Shown here in pieces: positions 605-43,507 of a stretch of 64,000 nt of DNA (the first letter of the stretch is position 1; the number at the start of each line of letters is the position of its first letter). Source of the stretch: a virus; the IMG/VR virus record IMGVR_UViG_3300033153_006243, positions 21,444 to 85,443 of that record; one strand, written 5' to 3'. The position numbers were made by a program, and so were the translations under genes. The notes beneath the pieces were generated by a model. It was not told the origin of the DNA. It worked only from the letters and a program-made list of their open reading frames with translations, and did no database searches.

Positions 605-3064
605 ATGATAACGCTCCATCTCGGCGACTGCCTGGAAGTATTAGGGACGCTGGAGGAGAATAGCGTGGATACGGTGATTACCGATCCCCCGTATGAACTT
701 GGCTTCATGGGGAAGAAATGGGATGGTACGGGAGTCTCCTTCCAGAAAGAGACGTGGAAGGCGGTGCTTAGGGTAGCGAAACCGGGGGCGACGATGCTGT
801 GCTTTGGGGGAACGAGGACATGGCATCGGCTGGCTTGTGCGGCAGAGGACGCGGGATGGCAAATAAGGGATACATGCATGTTTTTGTACGGATCTGGATT
901 TCCAAAATCTTTATCAATATCGAAGCAACTGGATAAGCAGGAGCGGGATAAGTGGTTGAAAGTAGAGAAGGCAACTTACGATATCAACAAACATACTGTA
1001 ATGGTAGCATGGAAAGAGAACTCAAGAACTGCGAAGTCTGCGGGGCTACTATTCGCAAAGAATGGAATCGGAACTGGAATGAATACGCCAAAAAGCGATT
1101 TTGTTCTAGGAAATGCAATGCTATCAATCAATCCCAAAAAATCAAGTGTAAATGCGATCATTGCGGAACTATCTTTGAACGTTCCCCATCACATCTACGA
1201 CAAAAGAAATGGGTATTCTGTTCCAGAGAATGTAGACATAAGCACCTATCGGTCGAAGCCATCTGCGGAATTTGTGGTAAGCAAGCAACCGTGCCTAGAA
1301 GTAGGGCCAGCGGAAAGTATTATTGTTCCCGTCAATGTATGGGGTTGGCAAAGCGGAAATACAATGGGCAATCTCAAGGCCGTCGAAGCCCTGAGGATTT
1401 GGCTTGGAAGCAAAAAGTCCTCAAGGACGCAAACTATAAATGTGCTATGTGCGGCATTGACCGACGACTTGAAGCACATCATATTAAGTCAATCAAAGAC
1501 TTTCCAAACCTTCGACACGATCCAACAAATGGAATGTGTGTCTGCCATGAATGTCATTATTACGGAATCCACGGCGGAGCACCTAATTTCATTCATGGTC
1601 GATATGCTAAGAAGTAAAGCTATTGATAAGGCGAAAGGAGCGAAAAGGAAAGTGGTAGGTAAATCCCGCTCAATAGATTGTATCGAGCGTGGGTATACCA
1701 AAGAGTACAGTACGAAGGCGGAAAATAGTGGTTACGGAACATCTCGCCAATTTGGGCTTGGCCTCCCCATCACCGCCCCCGCGACCGATCTCGCCAAGCA
1801 ATGGAATGGATGGGGTAGTTCCCTTAAGCCCGCATGGGAACCTATACTTGTATGCATGAAACCATTAGACGGGACATACGCGGAAAATGCAGAAAAGCAT
1901 GGTGTGGCTGGATTGAATATCGATGGGGGAAGGATAGAGATACAAGGTAATCCATATAAGCAGGGGTTTAGAAAGGGAATCTATGTTGATAATTACGAAG
2001 CGACCTCTTGGAGGCTACGGAAGAATGGAATCCCGCATACAAAGCTCCCGCACACTCAAGGCCGCTGGCCCGCGAATCTGATACTCTCCCATTCCCTCGA
2101 ATGCCGCCAAGTCGGGGAACAATGGGAATGTGCTGAGGGCTGCCCGGTGAGGATGCTAGACGAGCAGAGCGGGGAGCTGGATGGAAGAGGGAATAAGGGG
2201 CCTAGTATATCAAGGGCGGATGTATATGGATTCACTTTTGTTCATAGCTGCGGAGGGGAATTCTCTCGTGGCGATTCGGGCGGAGCATCTCGATTCTTCT
2301 ACTGTGCGAAGGCGTCGAGGAAGGAACGGAATATGGGGCTTAACAGCATACATACGATAAAGTATAATGTAGGCAAGTCAACTTTAGGGGGCTTGTTATG
2401 CAAAGACGTAAGTATGGTACTGGTAGCATTTCTCGAAAAGGCTACATCAGGATCAATGGTCAGATGGCTCATCGACGAGTCTGGCGAAAGCATCATGGGC
2501 CTGTGCCCGTCGGATTCTTTATCCACCACATTGATGGGGATAAGCAAAATAACCGAATCGAAAATCTCAGACTTATTGATGCCCTTACTCACAAAAGACT
2601 GCATACCGGATGTGAATTGCGGAACGGGGAATGGTGGAAGCCCTGCCGCAAGTGTGGAGAGTTCAAGCAAGTCTCAACGGACTATTATAAGCGAAAGCCA
2701 AGCGGGATTAGTCCGTGGTGTAAAAGCTGTTGCGTTGCCAATGCTGTCTATAATAAGCGACGCCGCAAACTGGAAGCCGCTAACCAATACACATAGTACA
2801 GTAAAGCCTCTTGCCCTCCTAGATTACCTCTGTAAGCTGACTAAGACGCCTACGGGGGGAATCGTTCTCGACCCGTTTATGGGTAGCGGGACTACGGGGA
2901 TAGCGGCGATCAGGATGGGTAGGAAATTCATAGGTATCGAGAAGGATAAGGAGTCGTTTGAGATAGCGAAGATGAGGATAGAGGCGGCGAAACCGGAGGC
3001 GGAGGCGATTAGGTTGGGGATAAAGCCGGAGAATCACCTGCCGGGGATTAAGCCGCTGTTCTGA
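605..3064 (+). CDS. DNA methyltransferase (N6A/N4C, beta class) carrying two in-frame insertions
   Basis: GDCLE start, DPPY, YGSGFPKS, LKPAWEPI, GRWPANLI, SRFFYCAKAS, STVKP and DPFMGSGTT motifs; RBS AGGAG upstream. Confidence 0.95.
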   Translation: MITLHLGDCLEVLGTLEENSVDTVITDPPYELGFMGKKWDGTGVSFQKETWKAVLRVAKPGATMLCFGGTRTWHRLACAAEDAGWQIRDTCMFLYGSGFPKSLSISKQLDKQERDKWLKVEKATYDINKHTVMVAWKENSRTAKSAGLLFAKNGIGTGMNTPKSDFVLGNAMLSINPKKSSVNAIIAELSLNVPHHIYDKRNGYSVPENVDISTYRSKPSAEFVVSKQPCLEVGPAESIIVPVNVWGWQSGNTMGNLKAVEALRIWLGSKKSSRTQTINVLCAALTDDLKHIILSQSKTFQTFDTIQQMECVSAMNVIITESTAEHLISFMVDMLRSKAIDKAKGAKRKVVGKSRSIDCIERGYTKEYSTKAENSGYGTSRQFGLGLPITAPATDLAKQWNGWGSSLKPAWEPILVCMKPLDGTYAENAEKHGVAGLNIDGGRIEIQGNPYKQGFRKGIYVDNYEATSWRLRKNGIPHTKLPHTQGRWPANLILSHSLECRQVGEQWECAEGCPVRMLDEQSGELDGRGNKGPSISRADVYGFTFVHSCGGEFSRGDSGGASRFFYCAKASRKERNMGLNSIHTIKYNVGKSTLGGLLCKDVSMVLVAFLEKATSGSMVRWLIDESGESIMGLCPSDSLSTTLMGISKITESKISDLLMPLLTKDCIPDVNCGTGNGGSPAASVESSSKSQRTIISESQAGLVRGVKAVALPMLSIISDAANWKPLTNTHSTVKPLALLDYLCKLTKTPTGGIVLDPFMGSGTTGIAAIRMGRKFIGIEKDKESFEIAKMRIEAAKPEAEAIRLGIKPENHLPGIKPLF
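920..1612 (+). mobile_element. 693-bp in-frame insertion 1 in the methyltransferase, carrying a nested HNH gene
   Basis: Interrupts the family motif FPKSLxISKAIDK; SKQLDK on the left, SKAIDK on the right; looks AT-richer than flanks; boundaries approximate. Confidence 0.8.
952..1617 (+). CDS. Nested HNH endonuclease with three CxxC..CSxxC zinc fingers (likely start ATG 1009)
   Basis: CEVC..FCSRKC, CDHC..FCSREC, CGIC..YCSRQC, then CAMCG..LEAHHIK..NGMCVCHECH; -1 frame relative to the methyltransferase. Confidence 0.92.
   Translation: MVESREGNLRYQQTYCNGSMERELKNCEVCGATIRKEWNRNWNEYAKKRFCSRKCNAINQSQKIKCKCDHCGTIFERSPSHLRQKKWVFCSRECRHKHLSVEAICGICGKQATVPRSRASGKYYCSRQCMGLAKRKYNGQSQGRRSPEDLAWKQKVLKDANYKCAMCGIDRRLEAHHIKSIKDFPNLRHDPTNGMCVCHECHYYGIHGGAPNFIHGRYAKK
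2340..2368 (+). promoter_or_regulatory. Sigma70-like promoter inside the methyltransferase coding sequence, upstream of nested HNH 2
   Basis: TTAACA(2340-2345)-17 nt-TATAAT(2363-2368); AGGGGG RBS at 2386-2391; ATG at 2398. Confidence 0.75.
2341..2783 (+). mobile_element. About 440-bp in-frame insertion 2 in the methyltransferase, carrying a nested HNH gene
   Basis: Lies between ERNMGL and NTHSTVKP; the host-frame translation is not methyltransferase-like; boundaries approximate. Confidence 0.75.
2398..2796 (+). CDS. Nested HNH endonuclease (HNH_3-like) with C-terminal zinc finger
   Basis: GYIRI..AHRRVW..HHIDGDKQNNRIENLRL..HKRLH, then CRKC..CKSC; -1 frame relative to the methyltransferase. 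Confidence 0.92.
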   Translation: MQRRKYGTGSISRKGYIRINGQMAHRRVWRKHHGPVPVGFFIHHIDGDKQNNRIENLRLIDALTHKRLHTGCELRNGEWWKPCRKCGEFKQVSTDYYKRKPSGISPWCKSCCVANAVYNKRRRKLEAANQYT

Positions 3065-4078: not shown

Positions 4079-4341
4079 ACGGGATGGATAGGAGTATGAT
4101 AATGGAGACGTATAAGTTTGGTAGGACCCCTATCGAGATATGGAGGCATTGTGATACGGGGGAGGAGATCCGGCTAGAGCCAAAGAGGGATAAGATTGAC
4201 TACTGGGGGATGAGTTTCGCCGCGGAGGTGAAGTATTGGGAGGCGAAGGAGGAGGAGTATAGCCTAATCGGGCTAGGGACGAGCCAAAGACTGGCTATCG
4301 AGGACCTACGGAGAAAGATAGAGAAGGAGAACGCCGCTTAG
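4075..4341 (+). CDS. Hypothetical protein
   Basis: AAGGAGG RBS; coupled to the previous gene. Confidence 0.6.
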   Translation: MNGMDRSMIMETYKFGRTPIEIWRHCDTGEEIRLEPKRDKIDYWGMSFAAEVKYWEAKEEEYSLIGLGTSQRLAIEDLRRKIEKENAA

Positions 4342-4367
4342 GAACGTAGAGAGAGGAGGACGGGGGA

Positions 4368-4727
4368 ATGAAGACAAACATCCTATGCAAGGAGATTAGG
4401 CAGGTGGCCACGGGATTCATCGTAGAGGCGCAATGGCCTACTGGAGGGGAGCCGGGCGGATACGGAGAGGTGATCTGTAAGGATATGGAGGAGGTTATCC
4501 GCGTACTGAAGGACTGCCAATGTGTAGATGTAGATGAGGAAATCGTGAACGAAGAACCTGAAGAACGAACAACTAGCGAACTCCTACGTAAATTGGAAAC
4601 CACGATGTTATTGTGGAGGGGGCCGTATGATCATAGGGATTTCGAGGAAGTGATACGTAGGATTGTAGCGCTCTTGCGGCGGCTATATGATAAGAGATGC
4701 TGTGTAAAGGCTGCGGAACGGAGATGA
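4368..4727 (+). CDS. Hypothetical protein
   Basis: GAGGAGG RBS. Confidence 0.6.
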   Translation: MKTNILCKEIRQVATGFIVEAQWPTGGEPGGYGEVICKDMEEVIRVLKDCQCVDVDEEIVNEEPEERTTSELLRKLETTMLLWRGPYDHRDFEEVIRRIVALLRRLYDKRCCVKAAERR

Positions 4728-13309: not shown

Positions 13310-13637
13310 AGCGCCTATGCCGTTTATCGCACCGAAGAGACAGAGGGAAAGAATTGAGCAGGCGAGAACGATGAGGATTAACCTTACCGTCGAGTCGAAC
13401 GCCCATGAGATTCTTAAACGTATAGAGAACGAGATCGGCGGGCGGGTTGAACGAATCGAGATGGCGATTAAGGAGCTTACCGAGGCGATAGAGGACTTAG
13501 AGGGGCTTGAGGAGACATTCGAGATTGAGATGACCTTGCGGCCTAATGCAAAATGGAAGGAACCGAAAGAGAAGAAGCCCTCGTGGATTACGTGGGTATG
13601 GAGGCTGTTTGGGGTTCCAGGGCAGGCTAATCGGTAG
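13293..13637 (+). CDS. Hypothetical coiled-coil protein; 3' end overlaps tRNA-Gln
   Basis: ORF track; operon packing. Confidence 0.55.
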   Translation: MPETNRAPMPFIAPKRQRERIEQARTMRINLTVESNAHEILKRIENEIGGRVERIEMAIKELTEAIEDLEGLEETFEIEMTLRPNAKWKEPKEKKPSWITWVWRLFGVPGQANR

Positions 13638-13687
13638 GCCAACGGACTTTGAATCCGTCAGAGGAGGTTCGATTCCTCCCTCTGGAG
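13616..13687 (+). tRNA. tRNA-Gln(TTG)
   Basis: Acceptor TCCAGGG/CTCTGGA; ACGGA-CTTTGAA-TCCGT; GGAGG-TTCGATT-CCTCC. Confidence 0.88.
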
Positions 13688-13692
13688 CAAAC

Positions 13693-21298: not shown

Positions 21299-21703
21299 AT
21301 GAGTAAAGAAATCACCGAATATATTGATTTCCAGATTGGACTCGCTCCTCAGGACATAGCTCACGATACGGCTACTGACTCTAGTACGTTCTTTGCAATA
21401 GCGAATTACGATAGATTCGCAGCCGTAGCCTCTTGCGAGGCGCTGGGAGCGGCTACGGACACACTGAAGGTACAGCTCTTGCAGGCAACCGATTCTTCGG
21501 GAACTAGCAAGACGACCGTCGGTGACGCGGGAACATATACCGGGGCAGTTTCCGGTCCCGCCGAGTGCAACGCACGGGGCGACGAGTTCACTTCTGGTTA
21601 TGGATACGTCGGGGTTCGGGTTACTCCCGATCCCGATGACGACGCGGCCAAGATGTGCGCGGCATTCATAATGAGGGGTCGAGCTAAGGTCGAGCCCGTC
21701 TAA
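21299..21703 (+). CDS. Putative head-associated structural protein
   Basis: Directly after the capsid gene; AAGGAG RBS; beta-rich. Confidence 0.7.
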   Translation: MSKEITEYIDFQIGLAPQDIAHDTATDSSTFFAIANYDRFAAVASCEALGAATDTLKVQLLQATDSSGTSKTTVGDAGTYTGAVSGPAECNARGDEFTSGYGYVGVRVTPDPDDDAAKMCAAFIMRGRAKVEPV

Positions 21704-40419: not shown

Positions 40420-40493
40420 GCCGGAGTAGCTCAACTAGGTAGAGCAGTCGCCTTGTAAGCGAAACGTTGAGGGTTCAATTCCTTCCTCCGGCC
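40420..40493 (+). tRNA. tRNA-Thr(TGT)
   Basis: GCCGGAG/CTCCGGC; loop CTTGTAA. Confidence 0.92.
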
Positions 40494-40496
40494 CCT

Positions 40497-40760
40497 ATGA
40501 AATTCAAAATCTACGGCAGGGAATCCTGTCCCAAATGCCAATCTACCCGGCGTAAGATTTTCCACCTGCTCAAGCGGATAGGAATAGAGGCGGCGATATC
40601 CTATATCGAGATGGATACGGTGGATGGGATGGCGGAGGCGATGTGGGACGATGCCTATGAAGTACCTACTACGATCCTCTCGCTTGGCGGGGCGGAGATA
40701 TCCCGATGGAACGGACGGATTCCTAAGTCCGATGAATTGATTAAGGCGATGGGGGAATAG
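40497..40760 (+). CDS. Glutaredoxin/thioredoxin-like protein
   Basis: YGRESCPKC..VPT; start ATG 40497 after the tRNA. Confidence 0.8.
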   Translation: MKFKIYGRESCPKCQSTRRKIFHLLKRIGIEAAISYIEMDTVDGMAEAMWDDAYEVPTTILSLGGAEISRWNGRIPKSDELIKAMGE

Positions 40761-40824
40761 CTCTAATTGGGAGAGCGGCTGGTTTGCACCCAGTATGTTC
40801 GGGATTCGATTTCCCGTTCCTCCA
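40751..40824 (+). tRNA. tRNA-Ala(TGC)
   Basis: G3:U70 acceptor; loop TTTGCAC; overlaps the glutaredoxin stop. Confidence 0.9.
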
Positions 40825-40830
40825 CAATAT

Positions 40831-40913
40831 GCGGGTGTAGTCTTTAGGACGTCAAGAGACTAGGGCATTGCGCAATGCCTGAGTGGAAAATCAAATCTCC
40901 TCCACCCGCTCCA
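40831..40913 (+). ncRNA. Aberrant tRNA-Gly-like RNA with encoded CCA
   Basis: GCGGGTG/CACCCGC-T-CCA; 8-nt loop TTGCGCAA; no TTCG T-loop. Confidence 0.6.
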
Positions 40914-40919
40914 ATTTTT

Positions 40920-40991
40920 AGCATCGTAGCGCAACGGTAGCGCAGCTCCCTGTTAAGGAGATGATTGGAAGTTCGAATCTTCCCGATGCTG
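40920..40991 (+). tRNA. tRNA-Asn(GTT)
   Basis: AGCATCG/CGATGCT; loop CTGTTAA. Confidence 0.92.
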
Positions 40992-40996
40992 CTGAC

Positions 40997-41070
40997 GGTT
41001 ACGTAGACTGGCGAAGTAAGTCACTTTCCTGTCAAGGAGGAGATCGCGGATTCAAATTCCGCCGTAACCG
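40997..41070 (+). tRNA. tRNA-Asp(GTC)
   Basis: GGTTACG/CGTAACC; loop CTGTCAA. Confidence 0.85.
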
Positions 41071-41078
41071 CCTTTAAT

Positions 41079-41149
41079 TGCGGAGTGGAGCACTGGAGGC
41101 TCATGGGTCTCATACGCCCATTAAGGAGGTTCGATTCCTCCCTCCGCTA
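41079..41149 (+). tRNA. tRNA-Met(CAT), initiator-like
   Basis: 1:72 mismatch; loop CTCATAC. Confidence 0.85.
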
Positions 41150-41203
41150 CTATGGGGGCCCGGCTGTGACCCAGGAGATGGGAGTTCAATTCTCCCCATC
41201 CAG
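41150..41203 (+). pseudogene. tRNA-His(GTG) 3' remnant
   Basis: CTGTGAC loop and GGGAG-TTCAATT-CTCCC T-arm; no D-arm or matching 5' acceptor. Confidence 0.55.
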
Positions 41204-41328
41204 ACTCGATAGTATCATTACCAGATATACATTAGTGGATAGGTTTTTATCAAGGTAGTATATGTCCTTTACCAGAGGTAAGGGACCCACAAAGGCTTCT
41301 GCCGCTGAGCCGTATCGGCGGCATACTA

Positions 41329-41399
41329 GCGGAGCTGGTGTAATGGTAGCATCCTTGCCTTCCAAGCAAAGGGTGGGGGTTCGAATCCCCCGTTCCGCT
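41329..41399 (+). tRNA. tRNA-Gly(TCC)
   Basis: GCGGAGC/GTTCCGC; loop CTTCCAA. Confidence 0.92.
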
Positions 41400-41405
41400 C
41401 CTATT

Positions 41406-41479
41406 AGGTTTTTGATATAGTAATAACACGGTAGGTTCTAACCCCGTAGCCGGGAGCTCAATTCCTATAAGGTCTGCCA
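41406..41479 (+). pseudogene. Decayed Gln-type tRNA with CTA anticodon
   Basis: Standard tRNA spacing ending in GCCA; loop TTCTAAC; D- and T-stems mismatched. Confidence 0.6.
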
Positions 41480-41702
41480 ACTTAGGAGAACAAGGGAATG
41501 GAAAAGAAATGGGAAGAAGATTCTAGTGGGGTCGGGAAACTTGCAGCAAGAATAGCGGTAAGGAAATTAAAAATAATGCTAAAGGTTTTTCAAAAGGAGG
41601 CTAAAGAAAAAGAACAGGTGAGTAGTGCAATAGGCAAACATACCAACATATAATCGATTCCTCTAGGGCCTGCCGACTTAGGAGAACAAGGGAATGGAAA
41701 AG
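41461..41702 (+). repeat. 46-bp direct repeat pair (41461-41506 and 41657-41702)
   Basis: ATTCCT.TA.GG.CTGCC.ACTTAGGAGAACAAGGGAATGGAAAAG twice, 4 mismatches. Confidence 0.9.
41498..41653 (+). CDS. 51-aa hypothetical protein between the repeats
   Basis: MEKKWEEDSSG..HTNI*, using the duplicated RBS and ATG. Confidence 0.55.
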   Translation: MEKKWEEDSSGVGKLAARIAVRKLKIMLKVFQKEAKEKEQVSSAIGKHTNI

Positions 41703-42599
41703 CCCCACGGGATTATGTTCCACCATTTCCACGGGGGAGAGCATCCGAAGCAGCAAGGATCCATTTCGGAATCCGAATTCAACGGCCTACTCGATTTCTA
41801 TTCCAGGGATCACGCCATCCTCAGCGCGGATGAATGGAAAAGACGGGCGTTCTGTCAAACGCTCAACGAGAATGATGTCTGCCTTACCTTCGACGATGGA
41901 CTCCGGTGCCAGTACGACCTCGCGCTCCCCATTCTAAAGGATAGAGGGCTTACGACGTTCTGGTTTGTCTATACCGGGGAGCCGTGGGTAGAAATATACC
42001 GTAGGTTTCGGCATGAATTCTTCGATTCCATTGATAACTTCTACGCCGAATTCTATCGGCAGGCGAAGCTACAAGGGCTTGGAAATCTGTTCGACCGGAT
42101 ACCCATGCCCCTTAACTACCTTTCGGAATATAAGTTCTATTCGGATTCCGATAGACGATTCCGCTGGGTTCGGGATAGGGTTCTAAGCAAAGAACAGTTC
42201 GGTAGGATCATGCGCTCCTTAATGAATAGTAAAGATACAGACCCCGTAAAGCTAGCGGAGGGCCTAATAATGGGCGCAGAAGAATTCCAGGAATTGGTGA
42301 ATAGTGGGAACGTCGTCGGGCTCCATTCCCATAATCACCCGACGAACATGGCAGAGTTAGGCGAGAGGGAGCAGCTCAAGGAATACTATTTCAATCAATC
42401 CCACATCCTCGGCGCGACGGGGATTCTAGCAGACTCTATGTCCCATCCAAGCAATAGTTATAGCGAGAAAACCCTACGGCTCCTAAAAGCAATCGAAATA
42501 TCGCTAGGCTTCCGGGCGAACATGGAGGATGGGTACGGTTCTCTCTTGGAGATGCCGAGAGAGGATCATGCGAACATAATGAGGAGGATGAGGGAATAA
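41694..42599 (+). CDS. Polysaccharide deacetylase (CE4/NodB-like)
   Basis: LTFDDG; GLHSHNH. Confidence 0.9.
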   Translation: MEKPHGIMFHHFHGGEHPKQQGSISESEFNGLLDFYSRDHAILSADEWKRRAFCQTLNENDVCLTFDDGLRCQYDLALPILKDRGLTTFWFVYTGEPWVEIYRRFRHEFFDSIDNFYAEFYRQAKLQGLGNLFDRIPMPLNYLSEYKFYSDSDRRFRWVRDRVLSKEQFGRIMRSLMNSKDTDPVKLAEGLIMGAEEFQELVNSGNVVGLHSHNHPTNMAELGEREQLKEYYFNQSHILGATGILADSMSHPSNSYSEKTLRLLKAIEISLGFRANMEDGYGSLLEMPREDHANIMRRMRE

Positions 42600-43393
42600 G
42601 GATTACGGTGTTCACCGGGAACCAGCCGAGACATATCGCCCTAATCGAGAGGCTTGCGGAGAACCATAGGATATTCGTAGTGCAGGAGGTTACTACCCTC
42701 TTCCCCGGCTACGTTGAGGATTTCTATTGCAAGTCAAAAGCAATGCAAGAATATTTCGGTTATGTCCGCAGAGCTGAGCGGGAAATTTTCGGCCTTCCCC
42801 GCCTCCTTCCCGCCGGGGTTCGGGGGATTGCGATAAAGGCGGGGGATTTGAGGCTGATAGACCCCGACTACATCGATAGCGCCCTAGAATCGGATTTTTA
42901 TATTGTCTTCGGGAGCAGCCTAATCAAGGGCTGGCTCCTTACGTTTCTCCAGGATCATTACGCAATTAACATTCACATGGGGATAGCGCCGCAGTATCGG
43001 GGGAGTTCCTGCAATTTCTGGGCGCTATACGACAGACACCCCGAACTGGTAGGTGCGACGATACAAACCCTAGCAAAAAAGGTAGACGAGGGGGAGATTC
43101 TTTTTCACGCACTACCCGCAGTTGAGGAGGTAAACCCGTTCGTCCTCGGAATGAAGAGCGTCATGGCGGCGCACATTGGGCTAACAAAAGCTATTAAAGG
43201 CGGGGAGATATTCAAAATGGAACCCGTTAGGCAGGACCTAAGTAAGACAATCCGGGTCACACGAAATAGGGACTTCACCGACAAAGTTGCCGAAGACTAT
43301 CTACTCCTTAGCCCCCGATTTACTAATGGCGATCACGAGAAGGTACACAATAGGGCAATAGGCGATTTCGTCCGGCCTTTTATTCTAAATTAG
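42596..43393 (+). CDS. Formyltransferase-fold protein (possible ATA start; GTG 42608 is the alternative)
   Basis: INIHMGIAPQYRG..GATI..VDEGEIL. Confidence 0.85.
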   Translation: MRITVFTGNQPRHIALIERLAENHRIFVVQEVTTLFPGYVEDFYCKSKAMQEYFGYVRRAEREIFGLPRLLPAGVRGIAIKAGDLRLIDPDYIDSALESDFYIVFGSSLIKGWLLTFLQDHYAINIHMGIAPQYRGSSCNFWALYDRHPELVGATIQTLAKKVDEGEILFHALPAVEEVNPFVLGMKSVMAAHIGLTKAIKGGEIFKMEPVRQDLSKTIRVTRNRDFTDKVAEDYLLLSPRFTNGDHEKVHNRAIGDFVRPFILN

Positions 43394-43395
43394 AT

Positions 43396-43470
43396 ATGGA
43401 CGTAGCGCAGTTTAGTCAGCGCACCTGCCTTGGAAGCAGGGGGTCGGAGGTTCGAATCCTCCCGTCCATA
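43396..43470 (+). tRNA. tRNA-Pro(TGG)
   Basis: ATGGACG/CGTCCAT; CCTGC-CTTGGAA-GCAGG. Confidence 0.92.
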
Positions 43471-43507
43471 CGAAAGAGGCCCCTTTGGTTCTCCGAATAC
43501 TTTCCTT

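Follow-up and report, generated by a model that had tools for sequence, protein, structure and literature searches.

Two HNH endonuclease genes nested in the −1 frame of a viral DNA methylase gene with a continuously open reading frame

Introduction

Free-standing homing endonuclease genes of phages, such as seg and mob of T4, are autonomous cassettes of a promoter and an open reading frame (ORF) that propagate through cleavage of alleles lacking them, without splicing. Inside a coding sequence, the closest described system is the ShiLan domain of actinobacteriophage DNA methylases (Gosselin et al., 2023, PMC9957025; Arsenault, Gosselin and Gogarten, 2025, PMC11855218), an insertion with an HNH endonuclease in a frame other than that of the host. 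A second, different hidden HNH-like ORF was found in the methylase Pacc40 gp60 (PMC11855218, section 3.6), and a nested HNH is annotated in GenBank inside the methylase of the Mycobacterium phages Molly, Lamina13, StellaBean and Applejack. Here, we describe a methylase gene that carries two nested HNH genes, HNH1 and HNH2, within two insertions. It lies in a stretch of 64,000 nucleotides, referred to below as the window (positions 21,444–85,443 of IMG/VR record IMGVR_UViG_3300033153_006243, an uncultivated virus record of 85,443 bases). Coordinates are window positions on the + strand unless a locus is named.

An earlier note, made from the letters of the window alone, had described the inserts as mobile HNH cassettes that are read through by the host frame at variable positions of the enzyme, and the comparisons made here support that description. 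The ShiLan domain, named there as a precedent, is a real one (PMC11855218, PMC9957025). The note had also proposed a new, third strategy besides RNA and protein splicing; this strategy had already been published in 2025 for ShiLan and Pacc40 gp60. We consider it probable that two HNH cassettes of the free-standing type were inserted into the gene, that the host is read straight through them, that the HNHs are made separately and that the elements spread by homing.

The methylase gene and its two insertions

The host gene (605–3064, + strand) encodes a protein of 819 residues, which is assigned to the beta-class N6-adenine/N4-cytosine DNA methyltransferases by motif order, Pfam and predicted fold. 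The ORF was matched by N6_N4_Mtase at both protein ends (Pfam, 4.8e-31), in agreement with PHROGs. Motif IV (DPPY, residues 27–30) is N-terminal, motif I (DPFMGSGTTG, of the FxGxG type) lies near the C-terminus and a Shine–Dalgarno sequence, AGGAGAGGGG, stands directly 5' of the start at 605 on the same strand. An AlphaFold2 (AF2) model was built on 48 sequences. Its methylase core, with a predicted local distance difference test score (pLDDT) above 90, matched CcrM, M.RsrI and M.BceJIV (Foldseek), and the pLDDT fell below 50 in the inserts at residues 144–271 and 660–695.

The limits of the insertions were taken from a BLASTP alignment to P0127, the closest insertion-free relative (406 residues), in which two blocks of the window protein are unmatched; the uncertainty of these limits equals the length of the flanking repeats described below. 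Insertion 1 occupies 231 codons (residues 108–338, 926–1618, + strand), as the earlier note had estimated. Insertion 2 occupies about 149 codons (residues ~579–727, ~2339–2785, + strand), in keeping with the ~147 given in the note. Both are stop-free in the host frame. Insertion 1 follows immediately after the GSGFPKS..SK motif, at the beginning of a region of variable length that is wholly absent from some family members. Homologues occupy the same site in Escherichia coli phage BUCT618, in 24 IMG/VR loci and in 74 protein clusters. The site of insertion 2 lies between ERNxG(L) and NxH(P/S)TVKP, where insertion-free relatives have a loop of anywhere between a few and more than 40 residues, and it is occupied likewise in 13 IMG/VR loci.

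HNH1 (1009–1617, + strand; 202 residues) lies in the −1 frame relative to the methylase, (952 − 605) mod 3 being 2, and its frame can also be read from GTG 952 (952–1617, 221 residues). The ORF, taken from the ORF list, matched HNH_2 (Pfam, 8.6e-5) and phrog_1271, 'HNH endonuclease' (PHROGs, 3e-24). Several CxxC zinc fingers are followed by a C-terminal HNH motif. Among solved structures, the phage HNH endonuclease 5h0m was matched by the family profile, and the window copy retains every invariant column of the family alignment (39/39), with Cys, His and Asn intact. The stop codon (TAA, 1615–1617) falls within the host codons AGT-AAA (S337–K338) at the 3' junction.

HNH2 (2398–2796, + strand; 132 residues) is also in the −1 frame, (2398 − 605) mod 3 again being 2. 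It combines an HNH_3 domain (Pfam, 1.5e-18) with a C-terminal CxxC..CxxC zinc ribbon, and the invariant Cys, His and Asn positions of its family alignment are all intact; a phmmer search of HNH2 against solved structures gave no match. Its stop codon (TAG, 2794–2796) falls within the host codons CAT-AGT (H730–S731), again at the 3' junction. HNH1 and HNH2 are unrelated (BLASTP E = 6.2). Two different and complete HNH genes in the −1 frame, with no stop in the methylase frame, had been read from the window before, and the ORF list, Pfam and BLASTP agree with that reading.

Selection for the open host frame

Synonymous shuffling of the HNH codons, proposed in the earlier note as a check, was carried out as codon resampling: the HNH protein was kept, synonymous codons were drawn from local usage and host-frame stops were counted. 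Resampled HNH1 and HNH2 contained means of 4.4 and 4.0 host-frame stops, respectively [P(0) = 0.004 and 0.008], and none is present in the window. A shuffle that preserved each element's own codon usage gave P(0) = 0.014 for HNH1 and 0.096 for HNH2.

The wider families provide a much stronger test. Relatives were retrieved via the HNH protein, so that the sample is unbiased toward open host frames. The single HNH1 sequence as a query found no relatives in viral contigs, and the HNH1 family alignment as a query found them. In all 24 viral loci with an HNH1 relative (54–68% identical) the gene is nested in a longer ORF at offset +1, with no host-frame stop compared with 5–31 stops in the remaining frame. 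Three close HNH1 relatives in bacterial metagenome-assembled genomes (MAGs; 56–64% identical) are nested with a stop-free host frame, as is the relative in E. coli phage BUCT618, which is without insertion 2. For HNH2, 13 of 14 viral loci (50–77% identical) have the gene nested at the same methylase site with the host frame stop-free. Frequent host-frame stops in homologous inserts, which would speak against read-through, were thus not found (24/24 and 13/14 nested and stop-free). In total, 41 nested relatives, all ascertained through the HNH, keep an open host frame and a length that is a multiple of a codon. Codon resampling over the nested members gave 3–9.5 expected stops for each, with P(0) ≤ 0.022 in every one.

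The sole non-nested HNH2 relative, at locus L009, is 74% identical to the window HNH2 and has seven stops in the corresponding frame. Since nested copies are stop-free and this free-standing copy is not, the open frame is a selected property and not a by-product of the HNH sequence; the comparison indicates that the stop-free host frame is kept by selection in nested copies. At L009 (3001–4387) the free-standing gene shares 17 nt with the beginning of another N6_N4 methylase gene, whose product has an SPPY motif. The HNH2 endonuclease family is therefore tied to methylase genes even where it is un-nested.

Nucleotide diversity in the overlap at HNH codon positions 1/2/3 was 0.28/0.24/0.45 for HNH1 and 0.32/0.23/0.52 for HNH2, and amino-acid identity was 0.64 in the HNH frame versus 0.39–0.43 in the host frame. 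By these measures the HNH is the dominant coding constraint in the overlap, and the host-frame peptide is mostly a stop-avoiding passenger.

The −1 frame shared by the two window elements had been taken as a sign of a general class. The number of stops expected is ~2–4 in this frame versus 13–19 in the other, and this paucity of stops is the best account of why both elements share it. With one origin per family the sample is n = 2–3. Nor is the frame universal, as the HNH_3 gene at site 1 of locus L016 and the Molly HNH lie in +1. The shared frame was rejected on these grounds as a sign of a common mechanism.

Leader and expression signals

The 5' leader of insertion 1 (926–1008, + strand) comprises its first 26 codons, 5' of the HNH ORF, and is coding in the host frame only. 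Its diversity at host codon positions 1/2/3 was 0.40/0.26/0.55, with a three-base periodicity at a permutation P of 1e-4. The periodicity follows the methylase frame, which indicates that ribosomes in the host frame enter insertion 1 and that the host frame is probably translated into it. The leader peptide is helix-like, with an invariant E and W and hydrophobic positions at helix spacing; in the AF2 model a helix spans residues 105–125 (pLDDT ~75–85). The same stretch holds the remnant of the HNH1 promoter.

HNH2 is preceded by a predicted sigma-70-type promoter (2340–2368, + strand), the best match in the region, in which TTAACA and TATAAT are separated by 17 nt and 11 of 12 positions agree with the consensus. 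In the host frame its bases encode L-N-S-I-H-T-I-K-Y-N. The promoter is kept in place in relatives, with 12/12 positions at L007 and L008, 11/12 at L011 and L016 and 10/12 at L010; in nested copies it reads as the methylase codons G-L-D/N ... K-Y-N, and the sequence upstream of the free-standing L009 gene is recognisably like it. Conserved in nested relatives and recognisable at L009, the promoter belongs to the cassette. A Shine–Dalgarno sequence, AGGGGG (2386–2391, + strand; AGGAGG in relatives), lies 6 nt 5' of ATG 2398 and encodes a conserved L-G-G in the host frame.

The corresponding HNH1 promoter in the window is degenerate (975–1002, + strand; CTTACG, 16 nt, TGTAAT, 6 nt to ATG 1009; 8/12). 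Counting the window, 12 of the 21 HNH1 family members have TTGACA/TTGATA-16-TATAAT-like boxes with 11–12 of 12 positions, and the −10 box ends 6 nt 5' of the ATG, which is the layout of a leaderless mRNA. In the window alone the HNH1 frame is open back to GTG 952, 8 nt after AGGAG (939–943), and HNH1 may here be translated from the methylase mRNA, perhaps from this GTG. Promoters embedded in host codons would offer an answer to the question of expression that the ShiLan authors left open.

Distribution and mobility

Insertion 1 was found in 74 further protein clusters, each called as one methylase of 455–1053 residues; the expectation that annotation in a single frame misses such elements is thereby borne out. 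One of these clusters, P0015, carries insertion 2 as well. More than 7,600 shorter relatives match the middle exon; the closest (406 residues) are without both insertions, as verified by alignment for P0127. Loci L003–L014 are without insertion 1.

Across 13 carriers of insertion 1, HNH identity and exon identity were not correlated (rho = 0.14, p = 0.23), and L069 and L070 share 93% identity in the HNH and 49% in the exons. The emptiness of the nearest exon relatives and the failure of the identities to track each other indicate that the elements move between diverged alleles. The patchy distribution and the discord with the host gene are those of a homing element, as judged from these alignments. 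Relatives are carried by uncultivated viruses, the E. coli phage and MAGs of Pseudomonadales and Phycisphaeraceae.

Several loci extend the picture. L016 (1751–3604) is a doubly invaded methylase, in which an HNH_3-type ORF (2118–2588, 157 residues) occupies site 1 in the +1 frame and a relative of insertion 2 occupies site 2 in the −1 frame, with the host frame open across both. At L072 (2576–4810), insertion 1 is accompanied by a second nested HNH-like ORF (4252–4701; phrog_1271, 2e-13) at a third site, flanked by FFKSII and YRSKASK. The L072 host ORF then terminates, lacking the exon with HPTVKP and motif I, and is followed by a distinct methylase gene. At L084 (1734–3125), in a Mycobacteriales MAG, a nested HNH1 relative with an open host frame is inserted before GSGFP and not after it, which suggests a different site or a rearranged gene; its HNH frame is open for 344 codons in a genome of 66% G+C. 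Six carriers of insertion 1 (P0002, P0004, P0021, P0024, P0048 and P0068; 814–1053 residues) have extra host-frame segments of ~150–300 residues, in which Pfam found no match. These long forms are candidates for more nested elements.

Junction repeats

Insertion 1 begins with an imperfect copy of the host segment that follows it, as identified by BLASTP against P0127. The 5' copy, SKQLDKQERDKW (920–955, + strand), and the 3' copy, SKAIDKAKGAKR (1613–1648, + strand), which runs into normal host sequence, both align to P0127 residues 112–118 (SKAIDK). The copies differ in their Ser codon (TCG versus AGT), and as these belong to different codon families the resemblance is one of protein sequence. 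Among family members, the 5' copy varies together with host type. At site 2 the copies are NSIHTIK and NTHSTVK, which align to the same residues of the empty allele (NDHPTVK); the likeness partly coincides with the −10 box (K-Y-N = AAG TAT AAT). A like resemblance over 11 residues is known at the ShiLan junction and was raised by the authors as a possible intron sign (PMC11855218).

Other features of the window

A degenerate tandem-repeat array with a 29-bp period lies directly upstream of the methylase gene (188–465), in a stretch of low G+C content (36–38%); three identical units occupy 196–290, and the period is not a multiple of three. The virus has eight tRNA genes (Gln, Thr, Ala, Asn, Asp, Met, Gly and Pro) at 13616–13688 and 40420–43471, seven of the eight being clustered at 40.4–43.5 kb. 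A megablast search with the first 12 kb of the window against cultured phages gave no match.

Discussion

The observation of two nested genes was confirmed, and the read-through, dual-coding reading finds good support in the comparisons. We count as demonstrated the anatomy of the locus, the selection on the open frame and the constraint on the HNHs, together with the coding signature of the leader, the conservation of the promoters and the horizontal movement. On this basis, two unrelated homing-endonuclease cassettes, each with its own promoter, start signal and HNH ORF, would have entered two variable regions of a phage methylase gene. Each insertion comprises whole codons only and has been cleared of methylase-frame stops, mainly via synonymous choice in the HNH gene. 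Ribosomes translating the methylase would then read through and yield an 819-residue enzyme with two extra peptide segments, no splicing being needed, and this long methylase would presumably be active. Transcripts that begin within the methylase gene would supply the HNH proteins, translated independently in the −1 frame. HNH2 would be driven by its near-consensus promoter and Shine–Dalgarno sequence; HNH1, probably leaderless in most relatives, may with its decayed promoter depend in the window on the methylase mRNA and GTG 952, although its exact mode of expression is conjectural. Spread among diverged methylase alleles would most likely occur by endonuclease-triggered repair (homing), with both HNHs expected to be expressed and to cut empty alleles.

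Several observations weigh against this reading. Firstly, P0086 (339 residues, on a 1353-nt contig) consists of the methylase N-terminus and the insertion 1 leader fused in frame to an HNH1 relative, which implies that broken host frames do occur; either this is a genuine decayed allele with fused frames, or an indel was introduced in the assembly. Secondly, residues ~580–655 of the host-frame insertion 2 (window 2342–2569) are modelled by AF2 as strands and helices with pLDDT 81–94, where a passenger loop would be expected to be disordered. In its variation this stretch is nevertheless a passenger of the HNH frame; the fold may be real, or it may arise spuriously because the HNH frame constrains the alignment. 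Thirdly, the weak window promoter of HNH1 (8/12) is combined with an ATG 1009 without a clear Shine–Dalgarno sequence, and HNH1 may be poorly expressed in the window, or decaying. Finally, simple homing does not account for the imperfect direct repeats of host sequence that flank both insertions; these may stem from the way in which the elements entered or from an adaptation that permits folding of the enzyme.

The conserved amphipathic leader helix, the protein-level host copies and the confidently modelled fold of insertion 2 hint that the host-frame reading of the inserts could be under selection of its own as a protein segment, beyond that of a tolerated passenger. We regard this as unlikely, if still worth entertaining. 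If it were true, new methylase domains would arise from homing-endonuclease genes by overprinting, and the flanking copies would be a designed 'adaptor' that settles a free-standing endonuclease gene and its promoter inside a coding sequence.

A methylase no longer needed as an enzyme, with its frame kept open to avoid downstream polarity or to keep ribosomes over the HNH starts, is improbable. Dispensability has been argued for some phages by the ShiLan authors (PMC11855218), and a truncated host gene (L072) and a frame-fused one (P0086) were encountered here. On the other side, the catalytic and S-adenosylmethionine-binding motifs flanking both insertions are invariant over 48 diverged sequences: the motif I glycines, H730, T732 and K734 are unchanged in 48/48, insertion carriers included, and motifs 3' of the insertions stay invariant in insertion-bearing alleles. 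Exon nucleotide diversity at codon positions 1/2/3 was 0.24/0.19/0.54, a strong third-position variation. Invariant motifs with such variation indicate purifying selection, which argues that selection acts on the full-length methylase.

Removal of the inserts from RNA by an unrecognised self-splicing or host-assisted intron, with the open frame incidental or a pre-splicing stopgap, is very improbable. The earlier note had seen neither intron core nor intein ends, in agreement with Rfam and Pfam: Rfam, at E up to 10, gave no intron family and a single chance match to a long non-coding RNA (E = 9.4). The HNH ORFs leave just 83 nt in insertion 1 and 59 nt in insertion 2, where the promoter and the Shine–Dalgarno sequence are located, so that promoter, leader and ORF fill the insertions and a ribozyme core has no room. 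HNH-carrying group I introns are common in phages, yet an intron would require neither a length divisible by three nor a stop-free frame, both of which the 41 nested relatives keep, and the leader would not be expected to show host-frame codon periodicity. The resemblance of the insertion starts to the sequence after the insertion site, the possible intron sign mentioned above, concerns the amino acids, the Ser codons being of different families.

An open host frame is precisely what an intein requires, and true inteins occur in the same methylase family in actinophages (PMC9957025). Post-translational removal of the host-frame peptides, whether through a non-canonical intein or through proteolytic excision followed by religation, is nevertheless slightly less probable still than an intron. 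Pfam matched the 819-residue protein to methylase families only, with no Hint or intein domain, and the junctions (Q...K followed by A for insertion 1, L...T followed by N for insertion 2) are unfit for known splicing chemistry. Furthermore, the host-frame peptide in the overlap evolves as a passenger (0.39–0.43 versus 0.64), unlike a catalytic splicing domain.

Least probable of all is that programmed −1 ribosomal frameshifting yields the HNHs fused to the N-terminal part of the methylase. The HNH frame is closed by a stop codon 3–57 nt ahead of each start, the short open stretches before the starts are without a slippery heptamer, and conserved promoters, with a Shine–Dalgarno sequence or a leaderless layout, precede the ATGs; the free-standing L009 relative has the same upstream region. 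Such fusions would account for P0086, an in-frame one, and for the −1 frame of both window HNHs and all of their nested relatives, but the stop-poor frame explains the latter, and L016 and the Molly type use +1. Ribosomal bypassing between the duplicated junction motifs was rejected, as these are 447–693 nt apart, no stop follows the 'take-off' and the leader has coding periodicity.

If cassette insertion with read-through is correct, a splicing-free dual-coding lifestyle is not peculiar to a few mycobacteriophages. No fewer than four additional HNH lineages would follow it in the same methylase superfamily; ~100 instances were found, the carriers being viruses and prophages of Proteobacteria, Planctomycetes and Actinobacteria. 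Nearly all of these appear as one long methylase in the output of standard gene callers, and long methylases with unassignable middle parts merit a check in all frames. The resampling provides the first quantitative evidence that a host frame is held open via HNH synonymous codon choice, with a free-standing relative as a natural control.

Comparison with known systems

The window elements and ShiLan share the host superfamily, the window methylase matching mycobacteriophage methylases at 39–47% identity. In both systems the host frame runs through the insertion without a stop, the third frame encodes an entire zinc-finger HNH and the stop of this HNH falls within the final bases of the insertion. 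Neither has an intein or intron signature, the first residues of the insertion resemble those after the site in both, and both have a patchy, horizontally transferred distribution. They differ in HNH family and in that the window elements are outside actinophages; tblastn with HNH1 (E ≤ 1e-5) returned three phage records only and no mycobacteriophage sequence. From these comparisons we assign the window elements to the functional class of ShiLan and, on the tblastn search with HNH1, to different sequence families, a remote relation to the ShiLan HNH being conceivable. Further differences are that the window gene holds two nested HNHs, that stop avoidance was here tested statistically with a free-standing relative as a control and that sigma-70 promoters are here predicted within host codons, whereas PMC11855218 mentions none and proposes leaderless translation on general grounds.

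Pacc40 gp60 resembles HNH2 in having free-standing relatives just upstream of methylases (phages Sashimi and Tiff81), as at L009, and differs in site, host (a helicase–methylase fusion) and HNH family; it is known from a single phage. The Molly-type insertion lies directly after GSGFPKS, as insertion 1 does, with an open host frame and a gene-within-gene annotation. It differs in its +1 frame and unrelated HNH, its copies are 97–100% identical to each other and its genomes are high in G+C, so that stops are rare in every frame.

Classical free-standing phage homing endonuclease genes lie between genes and those of the window inside a coding sequence that is apparently translated through them; L009 represents the free-standing type. 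Inteins and HNH-bearing group I introns (I-HmuI) are likewise mobile in conserved genes and leave the host protein functional. They differ from the window elements, for which no splicing domain or ribozyme was found and whose inserted peptide would be tolerated and not removed. The claim of a new class is not supported, as the class was described in 2025. New here are two additional families with their wide distribution, the presence of two nested HNHs in a single gene, quantified stop avoidance and promoters embedded in host codons.

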